Positions 29,140-55,183 of a stretch of DNA of 64,000 bases are shown in pieces. Both the position numbers and the translations under genes were made by a program. How positions within the stretch are numbered: the first letter of the stretch is position 1; each line of letters starts with the position of its first letter. The notes below the pieces were generated by a model, which worked only from the letters and a program-made list of their open reading frames with translations, was not told the origin of the DNA and searched no databases. The DNA is from a virus, in IMG/VR virus record IMGVR_UViG_3300035670_000067, positions 32,001 through 96,000 of that record. One strand, written 5' to 3'.

Positions 29140-29511
29140 CTAGTTTTGCTCAAAACCGTCTTCTTTTTGATCAACTTTTTCTGTTTTCTCTTCGTTTTTT
29201 ACCTCTTCTTTCGTCGTTTCTTCTGCGATTTCTTCGTCTTTCACAAGCATCGGCTTAGGCATCAAACGTGCTCGGTTGATGCCATTTGTCCCCTTTGACT
29301 TGCCATATTGTGAAAGACTTTGAATGAATTGTTCCTTGTCAAAACTCTTGTGATTTCCAATTGTGACAATGTCATGATTATCTCTGACCGCCACGGCTAA
29401 CGTAGCAAGTAGACCAATCATCTCATCGCGGCTCATAAACCGGACAGCAACTGGAACTTCAACCGAGTTGACAAGAATTTCCTGATTACCATCGATCGTC
29501 TTAACGAGCAT
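29140..29511 (-). CDS. Hypothetical protein
   Basis: Overlaps epimerase stop; acidic C-terminus. Confidence 0.55.
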   Translation of the reverse strand: MLVKTIDGNQEILVNSVEVPVAVRFMSRDEMIGLLATLAVAVRDNHDIVTIGNHKSFDKEQFIQSLSQYGKSKGTNGINRARLMPKPMLVKDEEIAEETTKEEVKNEEKTEKVDQKEDGFEQN

Positions 29512-30352
29512 TTTGATAAAACTCCACTTGTGATTTTATGAGTTCTGTAATGCTTCTCTGTTGCGTGTGAATGGATTTCCATGTCGGACAGCATTCCAAT
29601 TTTAATGGATCATACGGTGGGAGCTCCTTATATTGTGGGTTTGCTTGTTTATTTGTGACCAGTTCGACTATCTTCAGGAGATCATCTAAAGAGATACTTT
29701 GTCCAGTGACATTGGAAATTGTTGATGTCTTACTATCTATCTTTTCAACAATGGCGTCTACGATTTTCAGCACATCAACAAATTCTCTAATCGGCGAGCG
29801 TCCGCGTTTTCTGTAGATCGTCAAGGGTTCTCCATACAGAACATGTCTAATCATCCGCGGAATGATGTGAGTCTCGTTGATGTGCGCTTCGCCATACTGC
29901 CCACTTGCGCCAGTAACATTGAAAAATCTCAAAATATTGTATTTCGTAGAATACCTCTTAACTAGAAGTTCCTGCATCAATTTGGTCATACCATAGTGGT
30001 TTATAGGCTCTAAACGACTTTCTTCCGTTATCATATCTTTTTTATTGCCATAAACTGAACAAGAAGAGGCTAAAATAACCGGGCAACGGTAACGGGCAAG
30101 CAACCGCCGCAGTTCAATTACATTGTTTTCGAAGTATTCATACGGCTTTTCTTCGCCTTCCGAAACGTATGCGTATGATCCTAAGTGAATAATTAGATCC
30201 GGTTGATTGTGGATATCAAGCGAATATGGAATGGTTGGATTCAAATTATAATGCCGTCCGCCGGTGTCGAAGAGCATTAGCTGGTGATTCTTCAATCTTT
30301 CGCAGAGGAACTGTCCGATGTAGCCCTTGTGTCCGATGATAAGAATTTTCAT
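29501..30352 (-). CDS. NAD-dependent epimerase (UDP-glucose 4-epimerase-like)
   Basis: MKILIIGHKGYIG, ASSCSVYG, YGMTK, LRFFNV.GA, ETHIIP. Confidence 0.88.
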   Translation of the reverse strand: MKILIIGHKGYIGQFLCERLKNHQLMLFDTGGRHYNLNPTIPYSLDIHNQPDLIIHLGSYAYVSEGEEKPYEYFENNVIELRRLLARYRCPVILASSCSVYGNKKDMITEESRLEPINHYGMTKLMQELLVKRYSTKYNILRFFNVTGASGQYGEAHINETHIIPRMIRHVLYGEPLTIYRKRGRSPIREFVDVLKIVDAIVEKIDSKTSTISNVTGQSISLDDLLKIVELVTNKQANPQYKELPPYDPLKLECCPTWKSIHTQQRSITELIKSQVEFYQNAR

Positions 30353-30795
30353 TTTAGGAACCTTTTGTGTTGTGCATTGTGCATTGTACAAAGGTAATAA
30401 CACTGCAAAAAGCCATGTTTGCCGCATAACTGCAAAAAAAACATGCCGTATTGTGCCGTGCCGTATTGCCGCAAAACTGTGTATTGTTTCGTTTTTATGA
30501 AATCTGTTCTATAGAATTTGGATCTTGAGTCTGTAAATGGAATCAAGTGATCAAAGATTCAGCAGTCTATGAATCATTCATCTGTAGAATCTTAGATTCA
30601 ATAGTTTGTTCAGTTCTTATGAGGCGGGTGTGCCCCCCCAACAAAAAGTTGCTATTTGAAAATAAAAGAATTCAAATTATTCTCCATATATACCCCAGGT
30701 AAGGGGCATGGTTGTAGGTTATATGGATATTCAAAATTTCCGGACGTCTTTTTGGAAATCTGGATTTGCAGTGCCACATTGTACCGCGCCGTATT

Positions 30796-32698: not shown

Positions 32699-32758
32699 AC
32701 AAGGTGAGAAAAAAGAAATTGTTGCAAGGTGAGAATTGGCATGGCGTATGCAATGCAT

Positions 32759-32909
32759 GAAACATGCCAATTCGGCAACGTAGCAGGAAACATGCCAATT
32801 CGGCAACGTAGCAGGAAACATGCCAATTCGGCAACGTAGCAGGAAACATGCCAATTCGGCAACGTAGCAGGAAACATGCCAATTCGGCAACGTAGCAGGA
32901 AACATGCCA
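32759..32909. repeat. 28-bp perfect tandem repeat, 5 copies plus a partial
   Basis: GAAACATGCCAATTCGGCAACGTAGCAG; no spacers. Confidence 0.95.
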
Positions 32910-33377
32910 TGTTTACGTATAATCGCAAATCGCAATTTGAAATCGCAAATCGCAATAATTTCGCATTGTAGTTTGTGGCGCAAAGCGCTTTGCTCAATAT
33001 ATATACTTAGGTTCCGCAGTCCGTTATCTGGATCTGATTCACGGTCTTTATTCTGAGATCTAGAATCGTTTTTAGTGCTCGCAACTCTGGATCCCGCTCC
33101 CGGGTCGCCCCATCTACCAGATCCCGATTCAATATATATAGTCCGGGATTCCCGAATCCGGTGGCCCGGCCAGATCGGGATTCCATATTATATATAGAGA
33201 ATCAATATATATAGATTTGGAATTTTCTAAATCCCGGAGCCGCGGACGAGTCTGGAATCAGTATTATATATTGCGGTTTGCAATGCCGCATTGCACATTG
33301 CGATTGTAAATCGTAAATCGCAATGTCACATACAAAAAGAAAAACCGCAATCGGTTTTTGCCGATTGCGGTTTGCGA

Positions 33378-33743
33378 TTAGAATCGCACAATCACCGCCG
33401 CGATTTCGCGCTCCAATTCGCGAACATATGCGCAACGTTGAAACGCCATTGCATCGCACGCATACCCATATGCGCGTTCCGTCAATCCGCGTGTATTGAT
33501 TGCGGATTCGAAATTCGCAACCTCCATCACATTGTGGAGTTTCTCCACAATGAGCATTGCACGATCATACACGAATTGGCGATATGCCAATTCGAATAGC
33601 TTAGGATGCATGTTTTTGTAAACGCGAAATGAGAATTCGCCAGCATCCATTGCATATTGCAATGTATAGCTAGGATGCTCAAATTCACGGCATGGCATTT
33701 CTTTCACGTCACGAAACACAATTCGCCGCTTTTTGCTTCCCAT
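33378..33743 (-). CDS. Early hypothetical protein (cassette)
   Basis: Own promoter, AACCGAAAGGG RBS and terminator. Confidence 0.6.
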   Translation of the reverse strand: MGSKKRRIVFRDVKEMPCREFEHPSYTLQYAMDAGEFSFRVYKNMHPKLFELAYRQFVYDRAMLIVEKLHNVMEVANFESAINTRGLTERAYGYACDAMAFQRCAYVRELEREIAAVIVRF

Positions 33744-34246
33744 TGCTTTGCCCTTTCGGTTATGGCGGTGTGATTGCCGCCTACGCATACCATAGCCACA
33801 CAATAGCGCAGTACAAGCAATTACCATTATTTACTTTGTGCCATATTGCAATGCCAAATGCTGAATCTGTAAACCGCAACTGCTAACAGATCCGGAATCG
33901 GTATTGCGCTGGCTGACTCAGGATCGCGATCCTGAATCCCAAGTAAGATCCCAGATTGGTTTAGCGTTTACTGATTCGCGATCGTAACCCGTCCCATTCG
34001 GCCTGCGCACCAGTCCCCCAGTCCAACGGAGGATCCCGAATCAATATTATAAGTCGGTAAGGATCTGGATTTGGTATTTACTGATCTGGAATTTTCTAGG
34101 TTCCGGAGCCGCAGACGGGTCTGGAATCCATATTATATATTGCGGTTTACAATGCGGCATTGTACATTGCGATTGTAAATCGTGAATCGCAGTGTCGTAT
34201 ATAAAAAGAAAAACCGGAATCGGTTTTTGCCGATTGCGGTTTGTGA

Positions 34247-34564
34247 TTACATTGCTTCCAGTTCAATACAAATCGGCAACCCCTCATCGTGCAACCTAAT
34301 CACGAGACGAAAATCGGTTTTGCACGCATTAAGACTCGGCAACGTAGTGATTTCCCATCCCGGATGGGAAATCAACAATCGCAATTGCAAATTGCGAACC
34401 AATTCCCGCGGTTCCTTGTGGCCGTACTTATTGCAAAACCGCGCCGCGTTTTGCAATACGGTTTCGACTTCCGGCCCGACAACCAGAAGCGAGGTGATAT
34501 GCTCATAACCCATGTAGTTTTCTCCCCACACCTCGATTTCCATACTTCGCTTGTTTCGCTTCAT
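34247..34564 (-). CDS. Early hypothetical protein (cassette)
   Basis: Own promoter, AACCGAAAGGG RBS and terminator. Confidence 0.6.
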   Translation of the reverse strand: MKRNKRSMEIEVWGENYMGYEHITSLLVVGPEVETVLQNAARFCNKYGHKEPRELVRNLQLRLLISHPGWEITTLPSLNACKTDFRLVIRLHDEGLPICIELEAM

Positions 34565-35050
34565 GTTTCGTATCCCTTTCGGTTGTGGCGGCGTTATTGC
34601 CATCTAAGCATACCATAGCCTTGCCGTAGTGTAGCGCAAGCGAATTTGACCATTTACTTTGTAGTAAATCGTAAATTGCAATACGGCATTGTAAATTGCA
34701 ATACGGCATTGTAATCCGTAATCCATAATCCATAATCTCAATACGATCCCGAATCGGTTTTAGACTAACCGATTCCCGATCAATAAGTGCGATCCCGAAT
34801 CGGTTTTAGGCTAACCGATTCATGATCGTATCCGGTCCTATTCGGCCTACTCCCCGGTCTGGTAGAGGATCCGGATTCGGCATTATGGCTCCGGAATTTT
34901 CTAAGCTCCGGAGCCGCAGACGGGTCTGGAATCCATATTATATATTGCGGTTTACAATGCGGCATTGTACATTGCGATTGTAAATCGTGAATCGCAGTGT
35001 CACATACAAAAAGAAAAACCGGAATGGCAACTTGCCATTCCGGTTTTTTA

Positions 35051-35353
35051 TTACCTTACGCAAATCTGATTGTCGTCTAGGTATACGACAATTTCAATAT
35101 CAGATTCTATGTCGCCAACGTATACCGGTTCCGGCGCGTTATGCCGTATTGCGAATTGCAATAGCATAGCGGCAAAACATTGCATATCGTGAACTACTCT
35201 TTCAGATTGCGAAAAACGTGCACGATTGTCAAATGTCCATCGTGCACATTCTTCTTCAATCGCCTCAGCAAATGTTTCGCCGTCAAGTGTCACATTGAAG
35301 ATTAGAATTTGCTCTTGCTCTTCACAAACCCGCACCTTGCAAGCCGTTCCCAT
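35051..35353 (-). CDS. Early hypothetical protein
   Basis: Last of a 3-gene unit; RBS AAGGA. Confidence 0.55.
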   Translation of the reverse strand: MGTACKVRVCEEQEQILIFNVTLDGETFAEAIEEECARWTFDNRARFSQSERVVHDMQCFAAMLLQFAIRHNAPEPVYVGDIESDIEIVVYLDDNQICVR

Positions 35354-35354
35354 G

Positions 35355-35588
35355 TTACGATTCCTTATTTGTGATTTGTGATTCCATAAGCATATTGCAC
35401 ATTTGCATAATAGCTTCCATTGCCGTATTGTAGTATCGGCAGAATTTATCGTGATCTACGTTTCCCGGTAGCCCCAAGGCATCCGGCCCATTAGTGTCAT
35501 TTACGACACTAATAGTTTTATTGCAAGTTACGATACACGATTCGTTGTTGGTATCGTCAATGTAAAATTCGGCTATGGTATTGAACAT
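35355..35588 (-). CDS. Early hypothetical protein
   Basis: Middle of a 3-gene unit. Confidence 0.5.
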   Translation of the reverse strand: MFNTIAEFYIDDTNNESCIVTCNKTISVVNDTNGPDALGLPGNVDHDKFCRYYNTAMEAIMQMCNMLMESQITNKES

Positions 35589-35594
35589 TGCTAT

Positions 35595-35816
35595 TTACTC
35601 TTTGGCTTCGTCAATCATATCACGCATGGCGGCCAATGCGCCAAGCGCGATTGACAATTGCGTACCGAATTCCTCGCGATTCACGCTTGCCGGCAATCCT
35701 GCAATGCGAAATCCGGGACAACAAAACATAACCGTGATTTGCGATTCACGGTCAAACGACACCGTAGCGGTGTCGTCCTCGATTTCGTTGACCTCATACT
35801 TGTGCTGCTCAAACAT
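35595..35816 (-). CDS. Early hypothetical protein
   Basis: Promoter 35844 and AACCGAAAGGG RBS. Confidence 0.55.
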   Translation of the reverse strand: MFEQHKYEVNEIEDDTATVSFDRESQITVMFCCPGFRIAGLPASVNREEFGTQLSIALGALAAMRDMIDEAKE

Positions 35817-36312
35817 AGTGTGCCCCTTTCGGTTAGGTACTATACCATAGCTTCGCCGTAGTGTAGCGCAAGCAATCCCAGCAATGTATTTTGTGGCGTA
35901 TTACAATACCAAATACTGAATCTGTAATCTGTAACCCGCTACCATCTGCTGATCTATAATCGTAACTTAATCTACTGAATCACGATCGCAGTGGGGGATC
36001 GTGATTCAACAGTTACTCTTATGATTCCTGATCGTGAGTCGCACCCGTACCGTCCAAGGCACTCCCCCTGTATTCACACCCTGATCCTCTTTCTATAACT
36101 ATAATCTTAGATCACAACACTAAATGGTGGTTTGCGCTCACTGATCAATTATTGGCTCCCACTCCCTAATCGTTGATCTATATATATACGATCAAGATTC
36201 ACCGTTCAATATCATATATAATGATCTTCTTCCATTCTGGATCGTATTTCTGTATTCGCCATCCGCCTCATGCCCCAAAAAGAAGTGGCGCGGGTACCCG
36301 CGCCACTACCGT

Positions 36313-36633
36313 TTACCGGCAGTTTTGCTGCTCGCAGTAAGCCGTCCCGCGATGCTCCCACTCGCTCGACTTCTGGAACCGCACCTTGCCGTGCGGCTTA
36401 CGGAATCCGCTACCGTTCGCGTGGCACCGGATAGCGGCGATTCGCGGCATGTTGGCCGGGGCGATATCGTGGCCGGTCGCTTCCGTCTGTTCCAGGCACA
36501 CTTCCCGGAGGTCAAACGGCCTGCCATCCACGAACACCAGCTTGGGCTTCCAGCCGGTAATGAATCCGGTGGCTTGCAGTGCCATCAGTGCCCCGGCATC
36601 CTTGTAAACCTTTACGTGCTGACCGAGTTCCAT
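36313..36633 (-). CDS. Early hypothetical protein, paralogue of 55605-55946
   Basis: Shared LGQ.V.V and PAN.PRI..IRC.ANG.GF..PH.K..F.KSS.WEHRG. Confidence 0.7.
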   Translation of the reverse strand: MELGQHVKVYKDAGALMALQATGFITGWKPKLVFVDGRPFDLREVCLEQTEATGHDIAPANMPRIAAIRCHANGSGFRKPHGKVRFQKSSEWEHRGTAYCEQQNCR

Positions 36634-37079
36634 GTGAGTCTCTCCTTTTGGGTTGGTGCGGCGTTTTTGCCGCTACCAGTACAATAGCCCTAGCCAGCAT
36701 TGGAACAAGTGGGTAGAAGTTTTTGTTTTTGTCTTGTTTTCTTGGAGAGTCGCGGCCTCCCCGCCCCGATCCCGATTCATATCTTATTATCTTGATAACT
36801 CCCCTTGCCCCTCCGCCCCGATCCCGATTCATGTAATCTGAATACGATCGTTGGATATCCAAGGAATCTCAATACGAATCTTCAATAGATCGCAATATAT
36901 AGGGATGATCGCGAATCCACGCAATATATGGCGAATCCGCAATATAGATCCGCTCACAATATAAAAGAAAATGGCGGAGGTCACTCGCTGACACAGCGCG
37001 ACCTCCGCCACCAACCGAAAGGAGTCCGAACATGAGCATGGATATGGAGAGGACGTATTAGGCCCTCCCCATATAAGAA

Positions 37080-37289
37080 CTAACAAAACAGAATGGCTAC
37101 CGGCATGTTTTCCGTGAGGTTTGTACCTCCGGTCATGACCACGTTACGCGGCATTGTGATTTCCACGATGACCTTGTGCGTGGCCACCATGTATCCATTC
37201 TGTGAAGGCATCAGCTTGCCTACGAATCTCAGGCTGTTGTGGTCCAGCCGAACGTCCACGGTCTTGTTGATAAATGATAGCAGACTCAT
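37080..37289 (-). CDS. Early hypothetical protein
   Basis: RBS GAGG before MSLLSF. Confidence 0.5.
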   Translation of the reverse strand: MSLLSFINKTVDVRLDHNSLRFVGKLMPSQNGYMVATHKVIVEITMPRNVVMTGGTNLTENMPVAILFC

Positions 37290-37297
37290 GTGAACCT

Positions 37298-37570
37298 CTA
37301 CTTGAAGTTGGCGATCTTGCGCCAGGCATTCGGGCCGAGGCCGTTGATAAGCTCCTGGAACAGCCACAAGCCGTTGACCAGAGCGTAGCAGTGGCCGGTG
37401 TCCGTGAACACCCAGTAGACCTTGTTCTCGAACACCCGGCCAATCTCGTCGTAGAGTCCCTCGTCTTTGGTAAGCCGAACGTCAGCCCGCTTGGCCTTTT
37501 TCAGCGTCAGGCTAACCTGGACCTTTTCTGCAGCCCTGATTGCATCGGCTGCCCACTGTGGGATTTCCAT
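37298..37570 (-). CDS. Early hypothetical protein
   Basis: Promoter 37625, AACCGAAAGGG RBS, MEIPQW start. Confidence 0.6.
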   Translation of the reverse strand: MEIPQWAADAIRAAEKVQVSLTLKKAKRADVRLTKDEGLYDEIGRVFENKVYWVFTDTGHCYALVNGLWLFQELINGLGPNAWRKIANFK

Positions 37571-37921
37571 GTTACTGCCCTTTCGGTTGAGCATAGGCGC
37601 GGCACCATTGCCTTGCCTGCCCTTATTATAGGCCGCCACGCTTATCATGCAAGCGGCCAGATAAACTCTTTATTGTCTGGTTTTTCTGGTAGATCCGGCC
37701 TATTATCTGCCGTTGTGGCCAGTGTACCCTATAAGATTACCCTGTAGGACGCATTTTAGAGCCCTCTAGATGTACCCTGTTTGCTGGCCTAGCCTACCAT
37801 GGGCAACTAGTTTTGTGTGCTCAAAACACGGTCACAACGCATCCGCGGCCGGCGCAGGATCCAGATTCACCGTCCATTTCCTCAACAAATAAAAAGGCCC
37901 GGAGTGAATCCGGGCCGGTTG

Positions 37922-38143
37922 TCAGACGTGCATGACCTGTCGCATATGGCCGTACAATCCGGTCAGGCCACAGTAGACCTCGCTGACGTCGCCGTTTGCC
38001 AGTGCCGTTTTCGCGTATTCCAGGAACGGCTTGCACCCGTCGTCCCTGAGCTGCGTCGCCAGAAGCTCGGCGTTGGCGACGTCCTTCTGGGCCTCCGAAA
38101 TCGTGGGCGGGGTGATGTCAACCTTGTACGTTGCGAATTCCAT
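37922..38143 (-). CDS. Early hypothetical protein
   Basis: AAGGAGG RBS; terminator at 37891-37916. Confidence 0.6.
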   Translation of the reverse strand: MEFATYKVDITPPTISEAQKDVANAELLATQLRDDGCKPFLEYAKTALANGDVSEVYCGLTGLYGHMRQVMHV

Positions 38144-39503
38144 GGTCAGTCCTCCTTGTTGCTGGGGCCGGGCCGCTTGATTCCGGCGGCATCATCGTCC
38201 TTGTCAATCATGCCGGCCCAGATTACGCCGCCGCCCCAGATCAGAGCGCACAGGATTAGCAAGCAGTACCACAGAGAAGACATACAGACCTCCATCGGTT
38301 GTTTGGGTAAGGCGTTTTGCCTTACCTGCCACTACTATAGGTGCGGCCAGTATTGGAACAAGTGGTTTGAATAAATCTGTTTGTCTTTATTATCGGTGTC
38401 CGGACCTCCGTCCCGATCCAGATTCACATTCTAGTATCGTATCCGGAGGCTCCGCTAGGATCGTGAATTGGGGTCCCCGAATGATCCGGATTCAACCATA
38501 CCGAAATAGGATCTTGATATTATAAGACGATTCCCGATCTTACTTCTATGTCGCGCATATATATTCAAGATCGTGAAATATATAACTGATTCTAACTCTC
38601 TAGGATGCATCAGATCTTTGATCTGACAATCCTAGAAAGAAAAAGAAAAAATCTATAAAGCTACATTGTAACTTTGCACCATACTATTATTTCACTATTT
38701 ACAAATCACAATATCACATTTTACATTTTATTTTGCGGCAACTGGCAATACCACTATTTACAATACAGACTCCATATCTAGAAACCAGAACATCTTCCCA
38801 GATCTCTTTTGTATAGCCCCCATTATATATGGCACACATACCCAACATATGGATTCATGATATCCGTATTCTAGAATCATCTTTACTTTGTGCAACTGGC
38901 AATACGGCATTGTAGCAATCGGCAACTGGCATTGCGGCAAACTGCAATCGGCAACGCTACTTTGTGCAACTTTTTCTGTAAAACAGACTCTAGATATCTG
39001 TGAAACCGAAACGGTATCTTTTTATGTAAACACGGGCGGGGCAATATGTTACGTCACAGAAAGAGTCGTTTTCTATGACCAGATCCGGTCAAATTTGTGT
39101 ATAAAAACGGTCTCAGATCTTTCAAAAACATGATCATGAATCCGTATTTGAAGTGGAATTCCTCTCCCATCCTAAATATTTCGGTAAACTTTTCTCACGA
39201 TTCCGGTAATTTTTCTCACGATTTCGGTAACTTTTTACAGATCCCCATCATTTTTTGTAATTTCTTTACAGATCTACAATCCCTTTGAAACTTCTTTACA
39301 ATCCGACAAGATTACCGAAAGATCAGAGGTACTGTTACCCTATACCATACGCTCTCTCATCATATCATATCATCATATAGAAGTAGATATATGAGAGCCT
39401 ATCTCTTTTGCTTTGTTTTTGTTGAGAGCCTCCCACCTCTTCCATATAGATAATCAGCAGAAACTAATTTGATTCTCTGATTTTTATAGGGCGGCCCGCC
39501 ACT

Positions 39504-44464: not shown

Positions 44465-44584
44465 TCTGGTTGCCTTTCTGTGAAAATATAGACTTTACCG
44501 TTTGCCTAACCATATTGTAACACTTTCCAGCTATCTTACAAACAGTTGGATAAAGTGTTTATTGTCAGCGTTTAGATTATCTTG

Positions 44585-44657
44585 AGCCAATGGTCGGATT
44601 TGAACCGACGACCGGTTGATTACAAATCAACTGCTCTACCGACTGAGCTACACTGGC
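44585..44657 (-). tRNA. tRNA-Thr(UGU)
   Basis: Cloverleaf, anticodon arm GTTGA-TT-TGT-AA-TCAAC. Confidence 0.92.
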
Positions 44658-44676
44658 TTTTCACAACTGCGAACGA

Positions 44677-44762
44677 TGGTGTCTGGAGAGGGACTCGAAC
44701 CCTCACTTCCTTACGGAAAGCAGATTTTAAGTCTGCTGCGTATGCCATTTCGCCACCCAGAC
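44677..44762 (-). tRNA. tRNA-Leu(UAA)
   Basis: GCAGA-CT-TAA-AA-TCTGC, long variable arm, CCA encoded. Confidence 0.93.
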
Positions 44763-45103
44763 TGGTGGACCTGTCGGGAGTTGAACCCGAGTCCTATATA
44801 GCTTCTACAATGAAGTTGTTACATGCTTGTTCAATCGTTTATGGTACGATTAACAGAACCATGACTGTCTTTCCAGTCCGTCATTCGTATCTCTTCCGAC
44901 TGTCACCCGGAACCACCGGGATCGTCAGGCTGATTTACTGCTCAGCGAGCGAAGCAGGCTCCGTTAGGCCGCGAGGGCCACGGGAGCGGGGAAGGACAGA
45001 ACGGGTTTGGCAGTTCTGTTTTGACCGGAGTTTTGCGAGGCCAACGGTCATCCTCGGCATGAATTCATTATCTCCACTATACAGTCGAAACCTTTTCAGG
45101 CCC
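44763..45103 (-). ncRNA. ssrA: tmRNA
   Basis: 5' GGGCCTGA..GGTTTCGAC, 3' GACTCGGGTTCAACTCCCGACAGGTCCACCA; tag ORF AKPVLSFPAPVALAA* at 44964-45011. Confidence 0.95.
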
Positions 45104-45112
45104 ATTGATTGA

Positions 45113-45295
45113 TCACTTACTGATTGTAATCGCTCTCGCGATACAATACGGAATAACGGCCATACCGACCGCTTGCGCTGAAGCGCCGGCTTGCTGAACA
45201 GCGTTGGCTTCACCAGAAATGCTCAGCAAACTGAGCAATCCAATCACCGCAAACACACCGGCGATAGTCCAAACGATTCGGCCAAACGTCTTCAT
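45113..45295 (-). CDS. Small two-helix membrane protein
   Basis: Hydrophobic; A.QQA..A.Q......IPY.IARA. Confidence 0.6.
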   Translation of the reverse strand: MKTFGRIVWTIAGVFAVIGLLSLLSISGEANAVQQAGASAQAVGMAVIPYCIARAITISK

Positions 45296-45325
45296 ACTGA
45301 CTCTCCTTTGTTTGTGGAATAGAAC

Positions 45326-45781
45326 TTAGTTGTTACCGGGACAGAGTGCTTTGTCGTGAGCGGCAGGACAGAAGACCTTGTTATTCTTTCTGTCAAAATG
45401 AAGGCGACCGCCGCAATGTTCGCAGACAAACCCATTGGCATATCGCTTCGCATAGGAAGGAGCAACACGCGCAATCCTGTCCGCACACTGCATCGGCGTC
45501 AATCGAATAATGTGACGATTGACGTAAGTGGTTCCGGGAACCTTAACGCGCCGATACGTATTGAGCTGATCGCCAAGCGACCATCGCCTATTAACCTTGG
45601 ACAGATACCGCCGAACCACACCATGCGGATAAATCACGTAGAACTCGGGCCTGCCCGGGAGCTTGACCGCGACACTGCCGAACTTCTTGTGACCCTTTCC
45701 AGTCACATCCTGGAACCCTTGATTCACCAGGAAGCTCTTGGCCGTTTCCATCTCTTCTGCCGTGTACTGGGGGATTTCCAT
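45326..45781 (-). CDS. Early hypothetical protein with C-terminal Zn-ribbon
   Basis: Promoter 45820; CEHC...C..H; partial similarity to 53022 ORF (YVI...G..RR). Confidence 0.6.
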   Translation of the reverse strand: MEIPQYTAEEMETAKSFLVNQGFQDVTGKGHKKFGSVAVKLPGRPEFYVIYPHGVVRRYLSKVNRRWSLGDQLNTYRRVKVPGTTYVNRHIIRLTPMQCADRIARVAPSYAKRYANGFVCEHCGGRLHFDRKNNKVFCPAAHDKALCPGNN

Positions 45782-45876
45782 AGGACACCTTTGGTTATGG
45801 TTTTGTGTGGCACAGTACCATTATACCACTTCAAAGTTATCTTACAAATGGGCTGATTTTATTTGTTTGTGTCTAG

Positions 45877-45950
45877 TAGGCCCGACTGGACTTGAACCAG
45901 TGACCCGCGGCTTATAAGACCGCTGCTCTAACCAACTGAGCTACGAGCCT
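45877..45950 (-). tRNA. tRNA-Ile(UAU)
   Basis: GCGGT-CT-TAT-AA-GCCGC anticodon arm, canonical D and T arms. Confidence 0.9.
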
Positions 45951-46165
45951 AGAGAAATCAAGCCTTATCGAAAATGGTGTCCTGGCATTTCTGACAAATG
46001 CCAGAAATCTTATATTCGCGCTTAGACCGTTCGTCACGGAAAGACTTTTCAGTAACATCACAGCCACAGAAAACACACTTATCCACAGCGATAAACTTGT
46101 TAGCGAAGATCCGAATCGGATTTGTTACTTCGGTCGTTTTCACACTAGCTCCTTTCGTTGAGTTT

Positions 46166-46242
46166 TGGTATCCCCAACGGGGTTCGAACCCGTAGCCTTC
46201 AGGATGAAAACCTGATGTGGTAGCCACTTCCACCATGGGGAC
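46166..46242 (-). tRNA. tRNA-Glu(UUC)
   Basis: TCAGG-TT-TTC-AT-CCTGA, CCA encoded. Confidence 0.88.
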
Positions 46243-46245
46243 ATT

Positions 46246-46322
46246 TGGTGCTCCGGCCGGGATTTGAACCCGGGACTCCGACATTAAAAGTGTCGTACTC
46301 TAGCCAACTGAGTTACCGGAGC
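46246..46322 (-). tRNA. tRNA-Lys(UUU)
   Basis: CGACA-CT-TTT-AA-TGTCG, CCA encoded. Confidence 0.9.
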
Positions 46323-46329
46323 TCCTTTC

Positions 46330-46632
46330 TTAGGTGTGGACTTGCCAAGTAACCATGTGAGGCATTTCCTTAGCCATCTCATGATTATGGCAAATCACGC
46401 CACCGTTGAATAGAAAATGGTCTTTCCCGCGAATTGCGTTGAAGGTGAACGAATATGGTGCAAAGTCCTTGAACAAAACGATGTCAATGTTGCGACGTTC
46501 GAGCCAAGAGTTCCCGTACATGTCAAGGTACTGCAGAGTACCAAGGAACTTCTTGTAGATTTGGTCGTTCTTTTTGGCCCAATCCATGATGGATTCGAAG
46601 TATTCCTTGAGGTCTTCGCAGACGATTAGCAT
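46330..46632 (-). CDS. DUF4120-like protein
   Basis: DFAPYSF.F...NGGVICH...WQVHT. Confidence 0.65.
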   Translation of the reverse strand: MLIVCEDLKEYFESIMDWAKKNDQIYKKFLGTLQYLDMYGNSWLERRNIDIVLFKDFAPYSFTFNAIRGKDHFLFNGGVICHNHEMAKEMPHMVTWQVHT

Positions 46633-47119
46633 GACTTCACCCCAGCCTTTTCGAGCTCGCGGTGCATCTTAGAAAGAGCAAACTTGTATCCCTTGATGAT
46701 ACACCAGATGCACTTGCCCTTGGCGACTTCGATTTCCCGCCTTTCGAGCTTGACCCCGCACTTTTGGCACGTTGCTTCCATAGAATGAACTCCTTTTTGT
46801 TTGTTGCCATGGTTTACTGGCAACGGTACTATTATACCACATCTGGCGGCGGAAGCAAGCAGCAAGAAAAACTTTAGTTTTTCATTCTTCTTTGAGTCTT
46901 GAAAAACTCAACTGATCTTCATCAATGTGACATTTGTATGTATTCGTTTCATTTTGTGGACCGCCGACTTTGATGATGAAATTGCACTGGTCAATCAAGT
47001 TCCAAGTGATCACATATAATCCAAGATTATGCTCTCGAATGAATTTATCCAGTGTTGTCATAATCTCAGAACAGACTTGTGGTGCGTCTTTGTCGGTTGA
47101 AATTGCTTCTTTTTGCAGG

Positions 47120-47650
47120 CTAATGAGCCGAGCCAATCTGCTGATATTCATGTCGCACTTTCTCCCAGTATGGCTTTGTCGACCTCTTCTTATATCCATC
47201 TGGTCCACCATTCCACATCCTAGCGAACACTTCATTAGTGGGAGCTGAACCAGTTCTGCGCTGATATACGCGACCGTAATGAAGCAAGTATGTATGACAG
47301 ACCATTTTAGCTTTCACTGGATCAAACATGTCTTGGTGTGAAAAATTCAATCCAGTAATTCTATTGAAGTCTGTTACCACCTCAATATGAATCTGCAATA
47401 AGCCGATAGCCTTGCCGTTATCGCCTATCGCTTGGCTGTTGTTCCGAGATTCCACTCGACTCATCGCTCTCACCAATCTTGCCGATGGCTTTGTTACGAT
47501 TTCTCCAGATACTAATACAAGCGGCGACAGCGCGATCACGCTTATCACCTTCAGCAATGCGGGTTGAAACACAAGCCCGCATGAAATCTTCCATGTTGTC
47601 ATAGTCGTTTGGATTAGGCATATTTTTCTCAAGTATCGCAAGGGCCGCAT
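47120..47650 (-). CDS. Lysozyme-like/lytic transglycosylase (start uncertain, possibly 47464)
   Basis: VES.NN..A.GD.G.A.G.LQI and ARMWNGGP.G motifs. Confidence 0.75.
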   Translation of the reverse strand: MRPLRYLRKICLIQTTMTTWKISCGLVFQPALLKVISVIALSPLVLVSGEIVTKPSARLVRAMSRVESRNNSQAIGDNGKAIGLLQIHIEVVTDFNRITGLNFSHQDMFDPVKAKMVCHTYLLHYGRVYQRRTGSAPTNEVFARMWNGGPDGYKKRSTKPYWEKVRHEYQQIGSAH

Positions 47651-48258
47651 TCGTGAGGGAACTTGCCGCCCAGCAAGTGGATCTTATGCCAGATTTGCAT
47701 TCCAAGCTTCCAAGCAATGATGGCATCTTCCATTGACATACCTTCTGAATTGATGTCGTCATCAAGCCTATCGTGAAATTCTTCCCAAGCTTGATCGCCA
47801 TTGATTTGTGGTTCTCGGCCAGTAACTCCCGGTGGGAAATTGTTCCCGCTCATGGCTAGCTCTTTCGCATGGAACCCGGCTTGTGATACATGTTAGGATA
47901 ACGAGCATTTCGCTGCATCTTCTCCTCGAAATCCCTCTGCCGATTCTCAAGCCGCTTCTGACGCATCTTGTACTTCACTTAGAATTTCCCCTCTTGTTAC
48001 GACCGCGTCGCGCCACTCCGCTCGGCGTAGCACACGTACACGGATTGAAACGAACGCATCCACAATTCTCGCAATTGTATTTGCGAACGGTGCCATCAGC
48101 AGACCTGCGGATGAGAGACTTGAGACCCTTCGAGTTTTCCATTTTCTTTCCTTGTGCTGAGGTTATGGTTTGGTAACACGCCTATTATAGCCTGTCTTGC
48201 TTTTCACGCAAGCGGTCTATACACTTTTGGAATTCTTTGTTTGTTGCTGTAGTTAATA

Positions 48259-48588
48259 TCAACCCTGTACACAAGCTTTTTCTTCAACTCGTACCTCCGC
48301 ATATTCTTTGTTTAGGATAGCCTTTCCCATCCTCCAGCGTCCCTTATCACCCATGCTAGGCCAAGAGATCACGAACAAATATTCGCTAGGTATGACCTGC
48401 ATAATCGGCATCTTAGTGAGCGGTTCTTCTTCAACACGCGCTACGAAGGTGGTGGTCCTTGGATAATGCAAATCCCTAAAGGATGTCTCCGCAGATTTGA
48501 CTACATATAGACTTCGCATTTCGCTTCCATTATGATAAACGAAGTGCATCAATCCTTCTTTGACAACCAGATTTCCGTGATATTGCAT
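48259..48588 (-). CDS. Hypothetical protein
   Basis: RBS GGAG, in operon. Confidence 0.5.
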   Translation of the reverse strand: MQYHGNLVVKEGLMHFVYHNGSEMRSLYVVKSAETSFRDLHYPRTTTFVARVEEEPLTKMPIMQVIPSEYLFVISWPSMGDKGRWRMGKAILNKEYAEVRVEEKACVQG

Positions 48589-48591
48589 TGG

Positions 48592-48936
48592 TCACTCCCA
48601 AGGGAACGGGCGCTTGATGTTCATAGTTTCTAGCGTACTATCCCATTTATCTGGAACATTTGCTTCCAGAAAATATGCATATTGAGATTCCTTTTCACTT
48701 TCCGGATTGTATCTTACCGCAACTTCACAATAACTTCCGAAATCGTGCGGATATGTAACAATCTTGAGATAAGCGTCACCGGGTGGTTCGCCAAAAAGTT
48801 TCAGCAGAAAAAGCTTGAATCGCCTGCATTCTTCTCGCATTTCTTCGATATACGGCACATCGCTTATTACTTGCACACACGGTTCGTCATGCGGACTGCA
48901 ACCGATTTCCAATGTTTCAAGCATACTCAACATCAC
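48592..48936 (-). CDS. Conserved-looking phage hypothetical protein
   Basis: IG..P.DE.CVQV...HDFGSY.EV motif. Confidence 0.55.
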   Translation of the reverse strand: MMLSMLETLEIGCSPHDEPCVQVISDVPYIEEMREECRRFKLFLLKLFGEPPGDAYLKIVTYPHDFGSYCEVAVRYNPESEKESQYAYFLEANVPDKWDSTLETMNIKRPFPWE

Positions 48937-49570
48937 AGTCTTCCTTTGTTGGAGGATTACGGAATATTCTACCTAGGAAATATGGCTCACTCTCGCGTTT
49001 ATAAGAAGTACAGACGATCTCCCACTGCTTTATAGAAAATGGCGATTCGTATTTTCTGTTGTCAGGCTCGAACAGCCATCTATTCAGTTGTTCTGCTAAG
49101 CTCTTCCTGAGATTACTACGGAAGGTCTTTACTTTCAGCAACTGAATGCATTTGAAAAGTTGCCAGTTATCAACTTTCAATTCTCGTAATGGCTGAACAT
49201 ATTTTTCGCCTAGTTCGTTCTGCACGTATTCAGTGAATGCTTTGTGTCCGTGCATCCACTTAGACAATTGTTGTCCGCGCAAATAAGCTTGATAGAACTT
49301 TTTGATGGTTTCCGATGCGTCTACGCTCGCGTGATTCATGTAAGTCCACGCTCGCGTAGTGGCGTATTCTATATCGAAGAATCCGCAATTCTCTTGGTCC
49401 CACACAACGGCGAAGAAATCACTATCATCGTAACCGTTGTGCTCATAAGTTCTGACAACACAACCTTCATATGCTGTTCGTTTATACATGATCCGTTCTT
49501 GTGCTGTGCCCTTGTCAACTACGACAGGTTCAGCACCAGGACTTTCAGAACAATTGTAGACTGTTACCAT
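48917..49570 (-). CDS. Early hypothetical protein
   Basis: Promoter 49597; NGYDDSDF.A..WD motif. Confidence 0.6.
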   Translation of the reverse strand: MVTVYNCSESPGAEPVVVDKGTAQERIMYKRTAYEGCVVRTYEHNGYDDSDFFAVVWDQENCGFFDIEYATTRAWTYMNHASVDASETIKKFYQAYLRGQQLSKWMHGHKAFTEYVQNELGEKYVQPLRELKVDNWQLFKCIQLLKVKTFRSNLRKSLAEQLNRWLFEPDNRKYESPFSIKQWEIVCTSYKRESEPYFLGRIFRNPPTKEDCDVEYA

Positions 49571-50438
49571 AGGATGCCCCTTTTGTTGGCAACGTTATTA
49601 TAGCTCTTCGCTGCTATCCTGCAAACGCCAAGACAAATTAGTTACAGGCTAGTATCGTTATCACAAACGTGATAGAGATAAAGCCAAACATCAATGCTAC
49701 TACTCCATATATAGCGATTCTTTCATCATATTGAACAATTTGTCGATCAAGTTCCTTAATATCTGATTCTGAGTATATTTTCATGCATGATATAGTTTTG
49801 ACCATTCACGCAGAAAACAGGCTCATCAGTATTCCACTCTCTCACTACTACTGGTACATGACAGAATTCCCAAATGAAATGTTTGATGAGTCTTCGTGTT
49901 ACTTGATTGATATGTTCCGGATTACGTCTTATCGTAATCTGTTTCTTATCAACTTCAAGCACAAGGAACTTGTAGAAGTACACCTTAGTCTGTTCGCCAT
50001 AAACGACTGAAATATGCCGTTTATGCCGTACAGAATTAATCCTAATCTGTTCAGGAGAAAGCATATTGTCACCAACACCTTTTGGCCATGGCGCACCATA
50101 GCCAGATTATGGCGTAAGACCCATTATAGACCGGCTCAGACAGGCTTTAGCTTGCGCAGGCTAACACTACCCATACCACAAGCAAAATGCGTCTAGAGCG
50201 GTCTATAAACGTTTCAACAGTTAGGACTTTTCACCTTTCTTAACCAGAATAGGCTTCGTACATTTGAAAACAGGCGCAAGAAGCTTTGCCGCTCTCTTGA
50301 AGTCCGCTACTGTTGGTGAATATGCGTGGTCCGTTAATTTCCTGTCTGGTGGCAGATAAGCCAACAGCGGGTTCATTTCTATCCAATGGCCGAAGTCAGC
50401 AAATGGCTGCAACGCCTCCATGACTTCTTTAGGATAAT

Positions 50439-51122
50439 TCATGGCGACACCGGGCTTCTGTCTTCACTGGCTTCGGGAGCGGGTGCCGAAAGATCAACGT
50501 CAAAGACGTATCCCTTTTGAGCCTTGTACTGATTAAGCACTTCTGACATGGCTTGATACACGTTAGAATTCGCATATGCAAGTAAGTCCAGTTTCCATTT
50601 TACAGTTTCCATAAGCCACTGATGAAAGTCAACCAGTGCGAAGATTTCACCATTGACATCAACGCGCCCATCCGTGATGGTGTAAGTGTTGTTATCAACG
50701 AGGACATTGCCAGTTTCAGAATTCAGCAGACAAACCAAATCTACATATGTTTGGAATATGTAGAGCTCTTTGGCAGGGAACGAATAGCCGCGCAATTCTG
50801 AAGCCGAGACACCGGATGCACCAGAGAAATCGCAACGAAGCTTGTACGTCTCGGAAACGAGATTTTTTACATCGTTTCCAAACAACGTAACGATCTGCTC
50901 ACGTATTGATTTCTTCCATGGCGCATACACTGGAATGTAACTGAGAATGCCAGCTTCCAATTCCAACTTACTTGGAATCGCGTCTAGCGTGACAGCACCA
51001 GTCATCATCCCAGAACGTGCAAACAGATTAACACGATTGTCAGTTTTCACTGTTTTCAGGAATTCAAACAATCGCATCATCCTGTGTAGGTAGTGATAGC
51101 TTGTATGTCGTCTTGTTTTCAC
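50439..51122 (-). CDS. Hypothetical protein
   Basis: 227 aa ORF coupled to neighbours. Confidence 0.55.
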   Translation of the reverse strand: MKTRRHTSYHYLHRMMRLFEFLKTVKTDNRVNLFARSGMMTGAVTLDAIPSKLELEAGILSYIPVYAPWKKSIREQIVTLFGNDVKNLVSETYKLRCDFSGASGVSASELRGYSFPAKELYIFQTYVDLVCLLNSETGNVLVDNNTYTITDGRVDVNGEIFALVDFHQWLMETVKWKLDLLAYANSNVYQAMSEVLNQYKAQKGYVFDVDLSAPAPEASEDRSPVSP

Positions 51123-51464
51123 TTCTTAGCTTCCTTGTGCATGACACGCACCTTCTTGGCGAAGAATAGAACAGTATCTGTTCCAACATAGACTTCTAGT
51201 AACTTCAATGCTTCCATGACGTTACCAGAATTTATGCTATCGCACATCTGTTCGTACGTGTCTTCTTGGATTGGAGGATAAGCATCGCATAACACCCTGA
51301 GTTCAGTTTTAATCCAGAACCCAAGTGTATGCTCTTTGAACGGCAACTTCACTGCTACCGAAGTAAGCTCAGCAATATGCCGTCTTCGCATGAATTGAGT
51401 AAGCATGTTGTATAAAATGATAATGCGGGGCGGTCCTTAGACCGCCCCGCATTTCTTATTCTGC

Positions 51465-52322
<858 letters not shown>

Positions 52323-52441
52323 AGTGAGTTACCCTTTTATTGAACGTTATGTGAGGCGCTTGCCTTACATGGTGCTATTATACCACCGTCTTGTTTTCTT
52401 GCAACCGGCCGGACAATGTTTTTGTTATCAATGCCTCCTTA

Positions 52442-53041
52442 TTATCCGATCAACCAACCCTGAGATTCAGTTGTTCCATACTCACTGATATGGTGAGCGT
52501 GTTCAGTCACGAATCTATCAAAGGCGGGTTTCGGACTATCATATGGGGTTCTGCCGAATATATTCAGATTCAGTCCATAATCATCAACTATCATAACTCC
52601 GCCTTCCTTCAGAATTTGGAATCCAATAGTCATATCAACATAGGCGTCCATACAATTGTGATTCCCATCAACGTATATCACATCGAATTCATCATTGTGC
52701 CCATAAGCATGAAGCAAATATGTCAACGAATCACAAACCAAGAGTTGGAATTTGTTGCCTAACGGTTCAAGATTTGCTTTCGCAGTCTCTTTGATGATGT
52801 CACGTTTAGCCATCAAATCCGAGCTTCCGAAAATATACGGGTCAACACCAATCCCACGAGCACTATCTGCTGTGAAAATATTGTTCATCATCCAAATAGC
52901 AGAACGACCCTCGAAAACGCCGATTTCTAGATATCGAACTTTCTCTTTACCGACAAATTGCTTGAGCAATTTGCTCCACAATTTTGTCTTTTTATGAACC
53001 CAATTGCGTGAAAAATGCGGTTCATGCTTTGGAGTTTCCAT
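52442..53041 (-). CDS. Class I SAM-dependent methyltransferase (Methyltransf_24-like)
   Basis: YLEIGVFEGRS, GVDP, FDVIYVDGNH, LKEGGVMIVDDY. Confidence 0.88.
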   Translation of the reverse strand: METPKHEPHFSRNWVHKKTKLWSKLLKQFVGKEKVRYLEIGVFEGRSAIWMMNNIFTADSARGIGVDPYIFGSSDLMAKRDIIKETAKANLEPLGNKFQLLVCDSLTYLLHAYGHNDEFDVIYVDGNHNCMDAYVDMTIGFQILKEGGVMIVDDYGLNLNIFGRTPYDSPKPAFDRFVTEHAHHISEYGTTESQGWLIG

Positions 53042-53396
53042 TATAGTCCTTTCTCTTATACCTATATTCGGACACTACTGGTCCCAGCCATTTCAATAAC
53101 TCACGGAATGACGGGAACTGTTTGAATTTATTGTTTCCGCGTCCTTTGTTCAGTACACCTTGTGTCGCACCAATTGATGTATCGTGTGGAGCAATACACC
53201 TTCTTATCGCGCCAGAAGAAGCGATAACATAATACACACGAGCCTTATATTCATTGCCCTTATATTTCCGTTTTGCAGTTACTCGATTATCCAATAGATG
53301 AATTGATTTACTTCTTATACTGGATAACTCGAGATTATACCTGAAACAGAAAGCAAAAAGTTCGCTACGCTCTAAGAGATTCTGCAAATTTATCAT
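53022..53396 (-). CDS. Hypothetical basic protein
   Basis: Overlapping operon ORF. Confidence 0.5.
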   Translation of the reverse strand: MINLQNLLERSELFAFCFRYNLELSSIRSKSIHLLDNRVTAKRKYKGNEYKARVYYVIASSGAIRRCIAPHDTSIGATQGVLNKGRGNNKFKQFPSFRELLKWLGPVVSEYRYKRKDYNGNSKA

Positions 53397-53700
53397 GTCG
53401 TTCTTCCCATCCGATTTCGTTGTACCTTATTTCTTTTTCTGCATGAGCTTTGATTTCTTCGAACGTTCGATACTTTTCCATCCAAGCGTATTGTTTTATC
53501 GCTTCTGCGGCAGCGTTCTTTAGAGCATTAAGAGTTCCATCCTTACATATCATGTAGATGTGATGATAGTTGTCATCACCACGGCAATAGAATGTCGCAT
53601 CCCAGCCCGGAGCTGAAAGCATTGCTTCGCGCAATTTTTGGAAATCTTCTTCGGTCCAGTTGAGAATCTGTTTACAGATGGTGAGCGGATGAGCGGCCAT
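53365..53700 (-). CDS. Hypothetical protein
   Basis: AGGAGG RBS. Confidence 0.55.
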   Translation of the reverse strand: MAAHPLTICKQILNWTEEDFQKLREAMLSAPGWDATFYCRGDDNYHHIYMICKDGTLNALKNAAAEAIKQYAWMEKYRTFEEIKAHAEKEIRYNEIGWEERHDKFAESLRA

Positions 53701-53912
53701 ATTACCTCCTACTTATAAATGGAACTATTTTAGTTGGCGAATTCGCAAGATATCCAAATCCATTTATCAGAAACGCATGTTTATCGGCAGTGATCATTTG
53801 CCCGCTTCCCCATAAATTGAAATCTAATGCCGGAATGATGTACTTCTGTGCCTTAGCAGTCTCAATCCTTTCCATTGGAAAACACGATGTATGAGTAATG
53901 TATTTTTCCATT

Positions 53913-54623
53913 TTACTTGGACTTACCCTTCCGACTTTCCTTTGATTTGCCGGTAATCGTACCGATTACGATCTTCTTGTTCACAATAATTGCACTCCTA
54001 CAGATATGAGCAAATCCTCCAATGACAGATTTGCCACAAACCTTAGAATCACCACTGACTATGGCGTCATGTTCGATTATCGCATTTTCAAGCACACGCG
54101 CTCTTCCAGAAATAATGGCACGGTCTCGAATTGTTACATCGCCATAGACATTAGTACATCCATTAACATAAGCGTATCCGCAAACATTTGCTCTGTCACC
54201 AACGAAAGCTGTATCGTAGATTTTGGCGCGTCCGTACACTCTTGCATCACCGCCGACACTTCCCTGTCCATAGATCATAGCATATTCGAAAACACAAGCA
54301 TTACCAAACACCTGAGCGTCACCAAACACCTGAGCGTCACCGTACACCTGAGCGTCACCGTACACCTGAGCGTCGCCGTAGGCCAGAGCGTTACCGGAGA
54401 CCCAAACATCGCCGGAGACCCGAGCGTCATCGAAGACCCAAGCGTTCCCGGAGACCTGAGCGTTCCCGTAGACCCAAGCGTTTCCGTCTTTGCTAAGGTT
54501 TTGTTCCGATTCGATCCACCCACCGAGATCGCCAACTTTGACATCACCGAAACTCTTCACCGCACAGATGCGATGAAACTTTGGATTATCCGGGTGGGTT
54601 TCGGCAATGATTTCGTACTTCAT
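53913..54623 (-). CDS. Hexapeptide-repeat protein, copy 6
   Basis: Same N-domain, longest repeat region; own promoter 54657. Confidence 0.85.
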   Translation of the reverse strand: MKYEIIAETHPDNPKFHRICAVKSFGDVKVGDLGGWIESEQNLSKDGNAWVYGNAQVSGNAWVFDDARVSGDVWVSGNALAYGDAQVYGDAQVYGDAQVFGDAQVFGNACVFEYAMIYGQGSVGGDARVYGRAKIYDTAFVGDRANVCGYAYVNGCTNVYGDVTIRDRAIISGRARVLENAIIEHDAIVSGDSKVCGKSVIGGFAHICRSAIIVNKKIVIGTITGKSKESRKGKSK

Positions 54624-54868
54624 ACTTGCTGCCTTTCATAGTTGGTACCTACCATTATTGTACCCTTCTTATAGCATCATGCAAACGCCCAGATAAAATA
54701 AGCACCAATCTCATTCTAGTTACAAATCAGTAAAAAGAGGCTCGAACTTCCTCATTAACACCTTATTTCCACTATCATAGTCTTGGGCATCACCGTAGCA
54801 ATGTCTTAGTGAAAATGTAGAACTCTCGGCGCAACAAGGATACGTCCAGTCACCTGACGCTGAACCTC

Positions 54869-54956
54869 TGGCGGAGAGAGTGGGATTTGAACCCACGGTA
54901 CATCGCTGTACTCCAGTTTTCAAGACTGGCGCTTTCAACCGCTCAGCCATCTCTCC
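54869..54956 (-). tRNA. tRNA-Ser(UGA)
   Basis: CCAGT-CT-TGA-AA-ACTGG, long variable arm, GCCA end. Confidence 0.95.
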
Positions 54957-55183
54957 GTAATCCTTTACTTATCGTTCCACTTGAATGTTGGCTGATTCAT
55001 TGTTTCGTTTTCATACACGACATAACTTGCGTATCCTCTCAACACAGCTTCTCTTCTCGTCTTTTGTAACAAACTATCGAATCTAAACATCAAAACCACT
55101 ATAAACGAAAACGCCACAGCTATCGGAACAAGCATGAACCACAATAGAGAATTTTCGCTTTTCATTTTTTGCTCCTTTGTGAG

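Follow-up and report, generated by a model that had tools for sequence, protein, structure and literature searches.

The early cassettes and the arrays between them

The stretch analysed here, called the window below, consists of the 64,000 bases at 32001-96000 of the IMG/VR virus record IMGVR_UViG_3300035670_000067 (110,384 base pairs (bp) in all). It carries on its minus strand, at 33378..38295, ten small genes of 49-121 amino acids that are organised in six promoter-leader-ORF-terminator cassettes (ORF, open reading frame), and packed into the spacers around these cassettes are arrays of an 11-bp word, GATCNNGANTC (GATC-NN-GANTC, N being any base). Each cassette has a sigma-70-like promoter (TTGnnn-N16-TATnnT), a hairpin leader, a ACCGAAAGG-type ribosome site and an intrinsic terminator. 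About half of the copies of the word form 37-bp units with two-fold symmetry, GATCNNGANTC-N15-GANTCNNGATC, referred to here as dyads. The arrays are a real, strongly selected and lineage-specific cis-element, present far beyond chance.

A search of both strands gave 26 copies in 33057-39142, 19 forward and 7 reverse. Every coordinate and strand listed in an initial annotation made from the letters alone was reproduced, including one outlying copy at 30521; a further copy at 60139, within a coding ORF, was absent from that list. The whole window contains 28 copies, compared with 3.0 +/- 1.75 in dinucleotide-preserving shuffles (largest 9), and the whole genome contains 29, of which 26 fall within 5.6% of its length, so that the excess is a local concentration and not a genome-wide frequency. 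First-order Markov simulation of 33000-39200 yielded 0.28 copies (largest 3), an approximately 95-fold enrichment, which bears out the annotation's estimate of well under one copy in 6 kilobases (kb). The arrays and isolated copies, in the order in which the cassettes are transcribed, are as follows.

39132..39142, plus strand: solitary copy in the 1.4-kb non-coding stretch upstream of the first cassette
38415..38539: array of 3 copies (38415+, 38483+, 38529-), 54-168 bp upstream of the -35 element of promoter 38334-38361
37858..37868, plus strand: single copy directly after terminator 37896-37916 and 206 bp upstream of promoter 37625-37652
36768..36917, plus strand: array of 3 co-oriented copies (36768, 36820, 36907), 60-199 bp upstream of promoter 36681-36708
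35951..36200: array of 5 exact copies and one 1-mismatch copy, with a dyad at 35997-36033 and a 1-mismatch dyad at 35951-35987
34745..34878: array of 5 copies, with perfect dyads at 34745-34781 and 34791-34827 and a copy at 34868+, 106-229 bp upstream of promoter 34612-34639
33889..34042: array of 5 copies, with a perfect dyad at 33889-33925, a degenerate dyad at 33947-33983 and copies at 33928+ and 34032+, 69-212 bp upstream of promoter 33789-33816
33057..33183, plus strand: array of 3 copies that follow the terminator of the last cassette (33342-33373); the copy at 33057 forms a dyad whose second half has one mismatch
30521..30531, plus strand: outlying intergenic copy, ~95 bp upstream of an epimerase-family gene (29501-30427); taken alone it is compatible with chance

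All 26 copies in the block lie outside the called minus-strand ORFs, in non-coding DNA, as had been noted before. Those that precede the six promoters stand 54-320 bp upstream of the -35 element, with 1 to 5 copies per spacer. This is the placement of operators, in spacers downstream of the preceding terminators and upstream of the six predicted promoters. The earlier description, which placed the copies between one terminator and the promoter that follows it, is correct for the five inner spacers but not at the two ends of the block, where the copies at 38415-38539 and 39132 have no upstream cassette terminator and those at 33057-33173 have no identifiable downstream cassette promoter.

A fixed-gap word and its two-fold symmetry

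The gap between GATC and GANTC is exact. Within the block, a gap of 2 bases accounts for the 26 copies, and gaps of 0, 1 and 3-6 bases for 0-1 copies each. The outermost letters are conserved too: among sites in which the other seven fixed bases match, 26 of 30 have G at position 1 and 26 of 32 have C at position 11. In the block, exact copies outnumber expectation by 26 to 0.28, 1-mismatch copies by 18 to 4.6 and 2-mismatch copies by 109 to 52, and the ratio of exact to 1-mismatch copies is consequently 26 : 18, where chance would give about 1 : 17. All eight fixed bases are under selection.

The remaining letters are free. The NN of the word takes 12 different dinucleotides, with C or G favoured at its first position, and the N of GANTC is A in 13 copies, T in 11 and G in 2. 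The view that variable NN and flanks exclude plain duplication is upheld by these counts, with the addition that some copies are paralogous (repeat families D6, D8 and D13). Since the flanks of the paralogous copies have diverged to 63-92% identity while the word itself has stayed intact, the sites are held by selection and are not the product of recent duplication. The two sides of the word differ in composition, the GANTC side being AT-rich (65%) and the GATC side GC-rich (46% AT; p 0.03), and TAnnnT-like hexamers are frequent 1-4 bases from GANTC.

The component sites are not themselves concentrated to the same degree. The 6.2-kb block holds 53 GATC sites, 25 of which belong to the composite word; the other 28 compare with ~24 expected, so there is no enrichment of solitary GATC in the block, and solitary GANTC is only mildly enriched. 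With solitary GATC at its expected level, the composite word is the functional, selected unit. Outside the arrays both sites are mildly depleted, with observed/expected ratios of 0.73 for GATC and 0.81 for GANTC.

A position profile showed that in most sites a second GANTC lies 15 bases past the first and is followed by a second GATC. Counted as GATCNNGANTC-N15-GANTCNNGATC, the copies resolve into 22 units, 12 of which have a recognisable inverted partner at N15. Four of these are perfect 37-bp dyads (33889, 34745, 34791, 35997), two have one mismatch in the partner half and six have two or three; the partner half is lacking in ten units. There is also a divergent pair of copies (35977-/35997+) and a GANTC-NN-GATC-NN-GANTC triple at 36023-36040. 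The motif in both orientations, the fixed internal geometry and the two-fold symmetric units are the features by which an operator array is recognised.

The symmetry does not extend to the variable letters. Across the six best dyads, complementarity was seen in 4 of 18 cases at the free positions, no more than chance would give, and in 16 of 42 in the spacer arms. A search against Rfam returned no family at its gathering score. Because the free positions are unpaired and Rfam gives no match at that level, the word is read on double-stranded DNA and not as a hairpin, and we rejected an RNA or hairpin reading on these grounds.

Genome context, methylase genes and relatives

The ends of the record (G000 1-132 and 110253-110384) overlap by ~132 bases, with a single homopolymer A as the only difference. 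The assembly thus closes on itself; it is circular and probably complete, although the record is flagged as 'linear' and 76% complete. The minus strand carries all long ORFs of the genome. Transcription-downstream of the 33-39 kb block lies a siphovirus-type module of terminase, portal, protease, capsid and tape-measure genes. Four public runs contain the stretch, as contigs, and all come from one subsurface or soil study; no RNA run is among them. The basis of this work is a single uncultured genome from a subsurface metagenome with no known close relatives or host.

Depth in two of these runs hints that 32880..39493 (~6.6 kb) is a candidate collapsed long terminal repeat, coincident with the motif zone. 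Contigs over this interval have ~1.5-2 times the depth of the flanks, the depth being one figure per contig at low coverage. In run X1 the left flank (28.9-32.6 kb) has a depth of 15.5-18.1 and the block (32.9-41.3 kb) one of 24.9-26.5, with the right flank not resolved; in run X2 the corresponding figures are 6.1-8.2 for the left flank, 9.3-11 for the block and 3.9 beyond 39.7 kb. Repeats stand at both borders of the block, with six tandem 28-nucleotide units on the left (32727-32937) and iteron-like repeats of GATCTGTAAAGAA and TTACCGAAATCGTGAGAAAA types near 39150-39300 at the other border.

The ten cassette proteins had no match in Pfam. Among PHROGs, there was one weak match (E 0.006) of the 91-amino-acid ORF at 37298-37573 to a family of unknown function, and an ESM Atlas look-up of a 106-amino-acid cassette protein gave low-confidence, uninformative matches only. 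A 175-nucleotide repeat (D2), 78-88% identical between its copies at 33206-33380, 34075-34249 and 34880-35054, bounds three of the cassettes; it runs through a terminator, a CAAT-rich block, a TATAAT box, a motif copy with one mismatch, and a hairpin. The motif-poor spacer at 37700-37800 has three AGGGTA repeats instead, which may be a second type of site.

Beyond the window, one overlapping run of minus-strand genes at genome positions 100950-106243 forms an operon for hypermodification through 5-hydroxymethyldeoxyuridine (hmdU), from which we conclude that the DNA of this phage is probably hmdU-derived. No amino-acid:DNA transferase was recognised in this operon. Its genes, in order of transcription and preceded by a ligase gene directly upstream, are listed below.

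106252-107574: ATP-dependent DNA ligase gene, directly upstream of the operon
Gene 1 (105683-106243): beta-class N6/N4 methylase-like gene (PF01555, 38 bits)
Gene 2: gene for a 153-amino-acid protein without assigned family
Gene 3: 5-hmdU DNA kinase (PF18723, E 9e-62)
Gene 4: deoxynucleoside monophosphate (dNMP) kinase
Gene 5: thymidylate-synthase-like gene
Gene 6 (101660-102337): D12/Dam-family methylase gene (PF02086, 43 bits)
Gene 7: glycosyltransferase of family 2 (GT2)

GATC and GANTC are the classic targets of Dam-type and of CcrM/HinfI-type adenine methylases, respectively, and the phage carries one gene of each of these two classes, with specificities of their own that are putative. 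The Dam-like protein passes the Pfam cut-off (43 bits) and has YSGNK, an FxGxG-type S-adenosylmethionine (SAM) motif and DPPY. The beta-class-like protein, of 186 amino acids, passes the cut-off for N6_N4_Mtase (38 bits) and resembles CcrM and YhdJ around the SAM motif only (CcrM E 1e-4).

Searches for relatives covered the array and its phage. A blastn search of the 6-kb block against a phage database gave no match, and single-sequence IMG/VR searches with the terminase and with the Dam-like protein gave no relatives. Portal homologues are at most 51% identical, which indicates that there are no close relatives. Among the 80 IMG/VR loci collected from the portal alignment none has a cluster of the word, and scans of the whole records of five long portal relatives found 0, 0, 0, 1 and 5 dispersed copies. 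One of the portal relatives, G001, is complete (109,578 bp, portal 46% identical) and has zero copies; it encodes homologues of the kinase and the thymidylate-synthase-like gene and neither of the methylase genes. A gapped-word dyad screen that recovers the motif in this phage detected no equivalent array and no comparable gapped word in the non-coding DNA of G001. Three further portal relatives (L056, L086, L087; 35-38% G+C) have no GATC at all in 17-19 kb, a complete avoidance that is shared neither by this phage nor by G001; these three point to GATC restriction as something that probably matters in the lineage.

Scans for the 37-bp dyad were extended to other collections. IMG/VR yielded 17 single matches, which is the chance level. 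Metagenome contigs yielded at least 120 single matches and one dense case among the matches listed, the contig JACKZZ010001864.1 (L165). We rejected it as a counterpart: its words form a simple tandem satellite in which NN is constant, and its sequence is not similar to this phage. The satellite occupies L165:370-810, where 440 bp contain 17 GATCTCGATTC-type words, and a TTGCGAT-rich block precedes it. In GTDB, the matches listed comprised chance matches and one conserved Paenibacillus coding site; the latter (L239-L313) is a single coding sequence conserved in many species, and was set aside as a codon coincidence and not an array. A literature search on GATC, GANTC and phage turned up no description of such arrays, in agreement with the annotation's remark that no equivalent had been described. 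To our knowledge, every regulatory switch described so far that is built from clustered methylation sites uses a single site type, for example GATC (enterobacteria, P1) or GANTC (alphaproteobacteria).

Candidate functions of the arrays

We favour, with a probability of roughly 0.4, operator-like arrays at which one sequence-specific reader controls or insulates the early promoters, probably in a manner coupled to methylation; the methylation-dependent part would carry about half of that probability. The 11-bp word GATC-NN-GA(A/T/g)TC would be the half-site of an operator-like element on double-stranded DNA, the full element being 37 bp long and made of a half-site, 15 variable bases and an inverted half-site. 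We infer that a protein binds here, that it regulates the promoters and that methylation is relevant to it. The exact 2-base gap speaks for a single reader that touches both sub-sites, so one protein, probably a dimer and either phage-encoded or virion-carried, would read the whole word. With its sites stacked 3-5 deep in the non-transcribed spacers upstream of each early sigma-70-like promoter, binding could repress or activate the early cassettes jointly, or insulate them together. Binding would probably be methylation-sensitive, since the sub-sites are classic Dam and CcrM/HinfI targets and the phage has a gene of each methylase class, and the phage might thereby tell incoming, fully modified DNA from freshly replicated DNA. 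The identities of the sub-sites, the two methylase-family genes and the negative relative G001 together make a coupling to methylation plausible.

The annotation had listed three options and preferred none of them. It had offered a switch that senses methylation by two host methyltransferases; the position upstream of early promoters agrees with it, and there is circumstantial support from methylase genes that belong to the phage and not to the host, whereas its pure form with two separate methylation sites is at odds with the lack of enrichment of solitary GATC, only the composite with an exact 2-base gap being enriched. It had also offered an array that binds a phage protein controlling injection or packaging, and as a binding array this fits an exact composite that one protein could read over its whole 11 bp.

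Several observations weigh against the proposed reader. The phage genome encodes no SeqA, GcrA (PF07750) or DpnI_C domain, the roughly 45 ORFs scanned with Pfam included no evident regulator, and searches of Pfam, PHROG and Atlas gave no candidate for a cognate binding protein. The centres of the sub-sites are only 6.5 bp apart and lie almost on opposite sides of the helix, an unusual arrangement for a single small DNA-binding domain. The Dam-like protein scores 47 bits with the NCBIfam Dam model, against a cut-off of 115 bits, and its best solved relative, T4 Dam, aligns over residues 5-80 only; the beta-class-like protein has DPVY in motif IV instead of DPPY. The co-occurrence of arrays and methylase genes is documented by a single relative, G001, and judged by sequence comparison, no other genome searched has a conserved counterpart of the array.

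A more elaborate form of the same idea strikes us as unlikely. Here the Dam-type and CcrM-type methylases of the phage, perhaps together with hmdU hypermodification of the four thymines in TC context, would mark the composite word, and a single reader would sense the combined state, separate injected parental DNA from new DNA, and time early genes or stepwise entry from a terminal repeat. More generally, a composite of both sites, in fixed geometry and repeated before every early promoter, in a phage with both methylase classes and a thymidine hypermodification pathway, would be a novel route by which a virus ties the modification of its DNA to its programme of gene expression, and it would offer a rare, directly testable link between the 'orphan' methylases of phages and regulation, as opposed to anti-restriction alone. 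Even without a role for methylation, the arrays provide a very sharp candidate site for protein recognition, of 11 bp or, as a dyad, of 37 bp.

The arrays could instead be hot spots of modification that need no reader. Targets of the methylases, possibly also of the hmdU enzymes, would be concentrated in the DNA that enters first, and the densely modified patches would act through an altered DNA structure, by keeping off host nucleases or proteins, or directly on polymerase access. All four thymines of the word are in a TC context, both methylase-like genes lie within the hmdU operon beside the 5-hmdU DNA kinase, the thymidylate-synthase-like gene, the dNMP kinase and the GT2 gene, the sites are specified as sharply as the targets of an enzyme, and G001 lacks methylase genes and arrays alike. 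Furthermore, hypermodification of thymidine is reported to be sequence-specific, with motifs still to be found (PMC5889632). Two independent enzymes, however, would not account for the exact 2-base gap or the 37-bp dyads, and solitary GATC stays at its expected level in the block; we regard this explanation as doubtful. We are somewhat more sceptical that the arrays serve a terminal repeat, through stepwise injection in the manner of T5, holding or protection of the ends, recombination between repeats, or packaging. The motif zone (33057-39142) does coincide with the raised contig depth of two runs, the tandem and iteron-like repeats do flank the block, and small genes with strong promoters of their own recall T5 and SPO1; set against this are the coarseness of the depth figures, the way in which the copies follow the promoters spacer by spacer and not the borders of the block, and searches of Pfam and PHROGs that recognised no homologue of the known T5 pre-early proteins.

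Decoys for restriction are very unlikely. Non-cleavable GATC and GANTC sites, methylated or hypermodified and placed in expendable DNA, would in this case absorb host enzymes that require two sites. The absence of GATC from three portal relatives and the mild depletion of both sites outside the arrays are in keeping with restriction pressure, but a sponge needs density and not an exact gap, fixed dyads or proximity to promoters, and solitary sites are not enriched. We know of no precedent for decoy arrays of this kind, and the annotation's suggestion of them finds no support beyond the identities of the sites. We give still less credence to selfish or neutral repeats, whether a palindromic element similar to repetitive extragenic palindromes (REP) or to miniature inverted-repeat transposable elements (MITE), or a residue of cassette duplication. 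There are clear paralogues (D6, D8, D13), and the 175-nucleotide D2 repeat includes a 1-mismatch copy; only the eight fixed bases are conserved, however, with interiors and flanks that differ. At ~30% flank divergence, neutral decay would leave eight bases intact in ~6% of copies, yet exact copies outnumber those with one mismatch. The free positions show no hairpin complementarity, there is no conserved terminal inverted repeat, and in ten units the partner half is lacking. The defining feature of REP/MITE elements and hairpins, arms that stay complementary at variable positions, was tested and is not seen here (4/18). Equally slight is the chance that the word is an alternative promoter, lying at or close to the point where a modified or phage-specific polymerase would begin transcription. 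The AT-rich GANTC side and the TAnnnT-like hexamers next to it would suit a promoter, but 7 of the 26 copies are inverted, the dyads would have to be convergent or divergent promoter pairs, no -35 element stands at the right distance, and no gene for a phage RNA polymerase or sigma factor was recognised among the ORFs scanned. Two more specific candidates were rejected: Type IIB sites such as GAY(N5)RTC, which do not allow for the T found at position 9 in 11 of 26 copies, and a T5-type nick site, because the copies occur in both orientations and are clustered.

The arrays resemble several known systems in outline and are a member of none, because in each case the defining reader is missing and the fixed-gap composite is without counterpart. 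The pap, agn43, opvAB and gtr switches and the Mu mom promoter share with them several methylation sites in non-coding DNA upstream of a promoter. In those systems the sites overlap binding sites of Lrp or OxyR, so that methylation and binding are mutually exclusive, and plain GATC is used, in 2-4 copies, with a host methylase and a host regulator; in this phage two different methylase-type sites are joined at a fixed gap into an 11-bp composite, with 26 copies ahead of six promoters, the methylase genes are the phage's own, and we could find no binder. Clusters of GATC at oriC read by SeqA, and GANTC promoters under GcrA and CcrM, are alike in that a protein reads the methylation state at clustered or promoter sites. 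SeqA and GcrA, however, come from different bacterial classes, neither system has a composite site, and neither domain is present in this phage. The pac site of P1, seven TGATCA/G hexamers at which Dam methylation gates cleavage, is likewise a phage cis-element of clustered adenine-methylation sites, in a phage with a Dam of its own (cited in PMC6449724). It is a single 162-bp site inside a gene with a role in packaging, whereas the present arrays extend over 6 kb of promoter-adjacent spacers, ~9 kb upstream of the terminase gene.

The inverted sites of phi29 p4, ~15 bp apart, the heptad arrays of pSM19035 omega and the parC iterons are operator arrays of small regulators. They correspond to the present arrays in having a short motif, direct and inverted, upstream of several promoters, with symmetric units and a variable centre, and there one protein controls the set of promoters. 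This phage differs in its unusually sharp recognition, with eight invariant and three free positions, and in that its cognate protein was not found. The terminal repeats of T5 and SPO1 hold small genes with strong promoters of their own, and are similar to this block of small uncharacterised genes, each with a strong promoter and a terminator, which may itself be a long terminal repeat. SPO1 DNA contains 5-hydroxymethyluracil, and its TF1 binds near early promoters; the DNA of this phage is, as noted, probably hmdU-derived. We know of no composite array of methylation sites described in T5 or SPO1, and the terminal repeat of this phage is hinted at by contig depth only. Elsewhere in the window, a transfer-messenger RNA gene (tag AKPVLSFPAPVALAA) and seven transfer RNA genes lie on the minus strand at 44584-55260.

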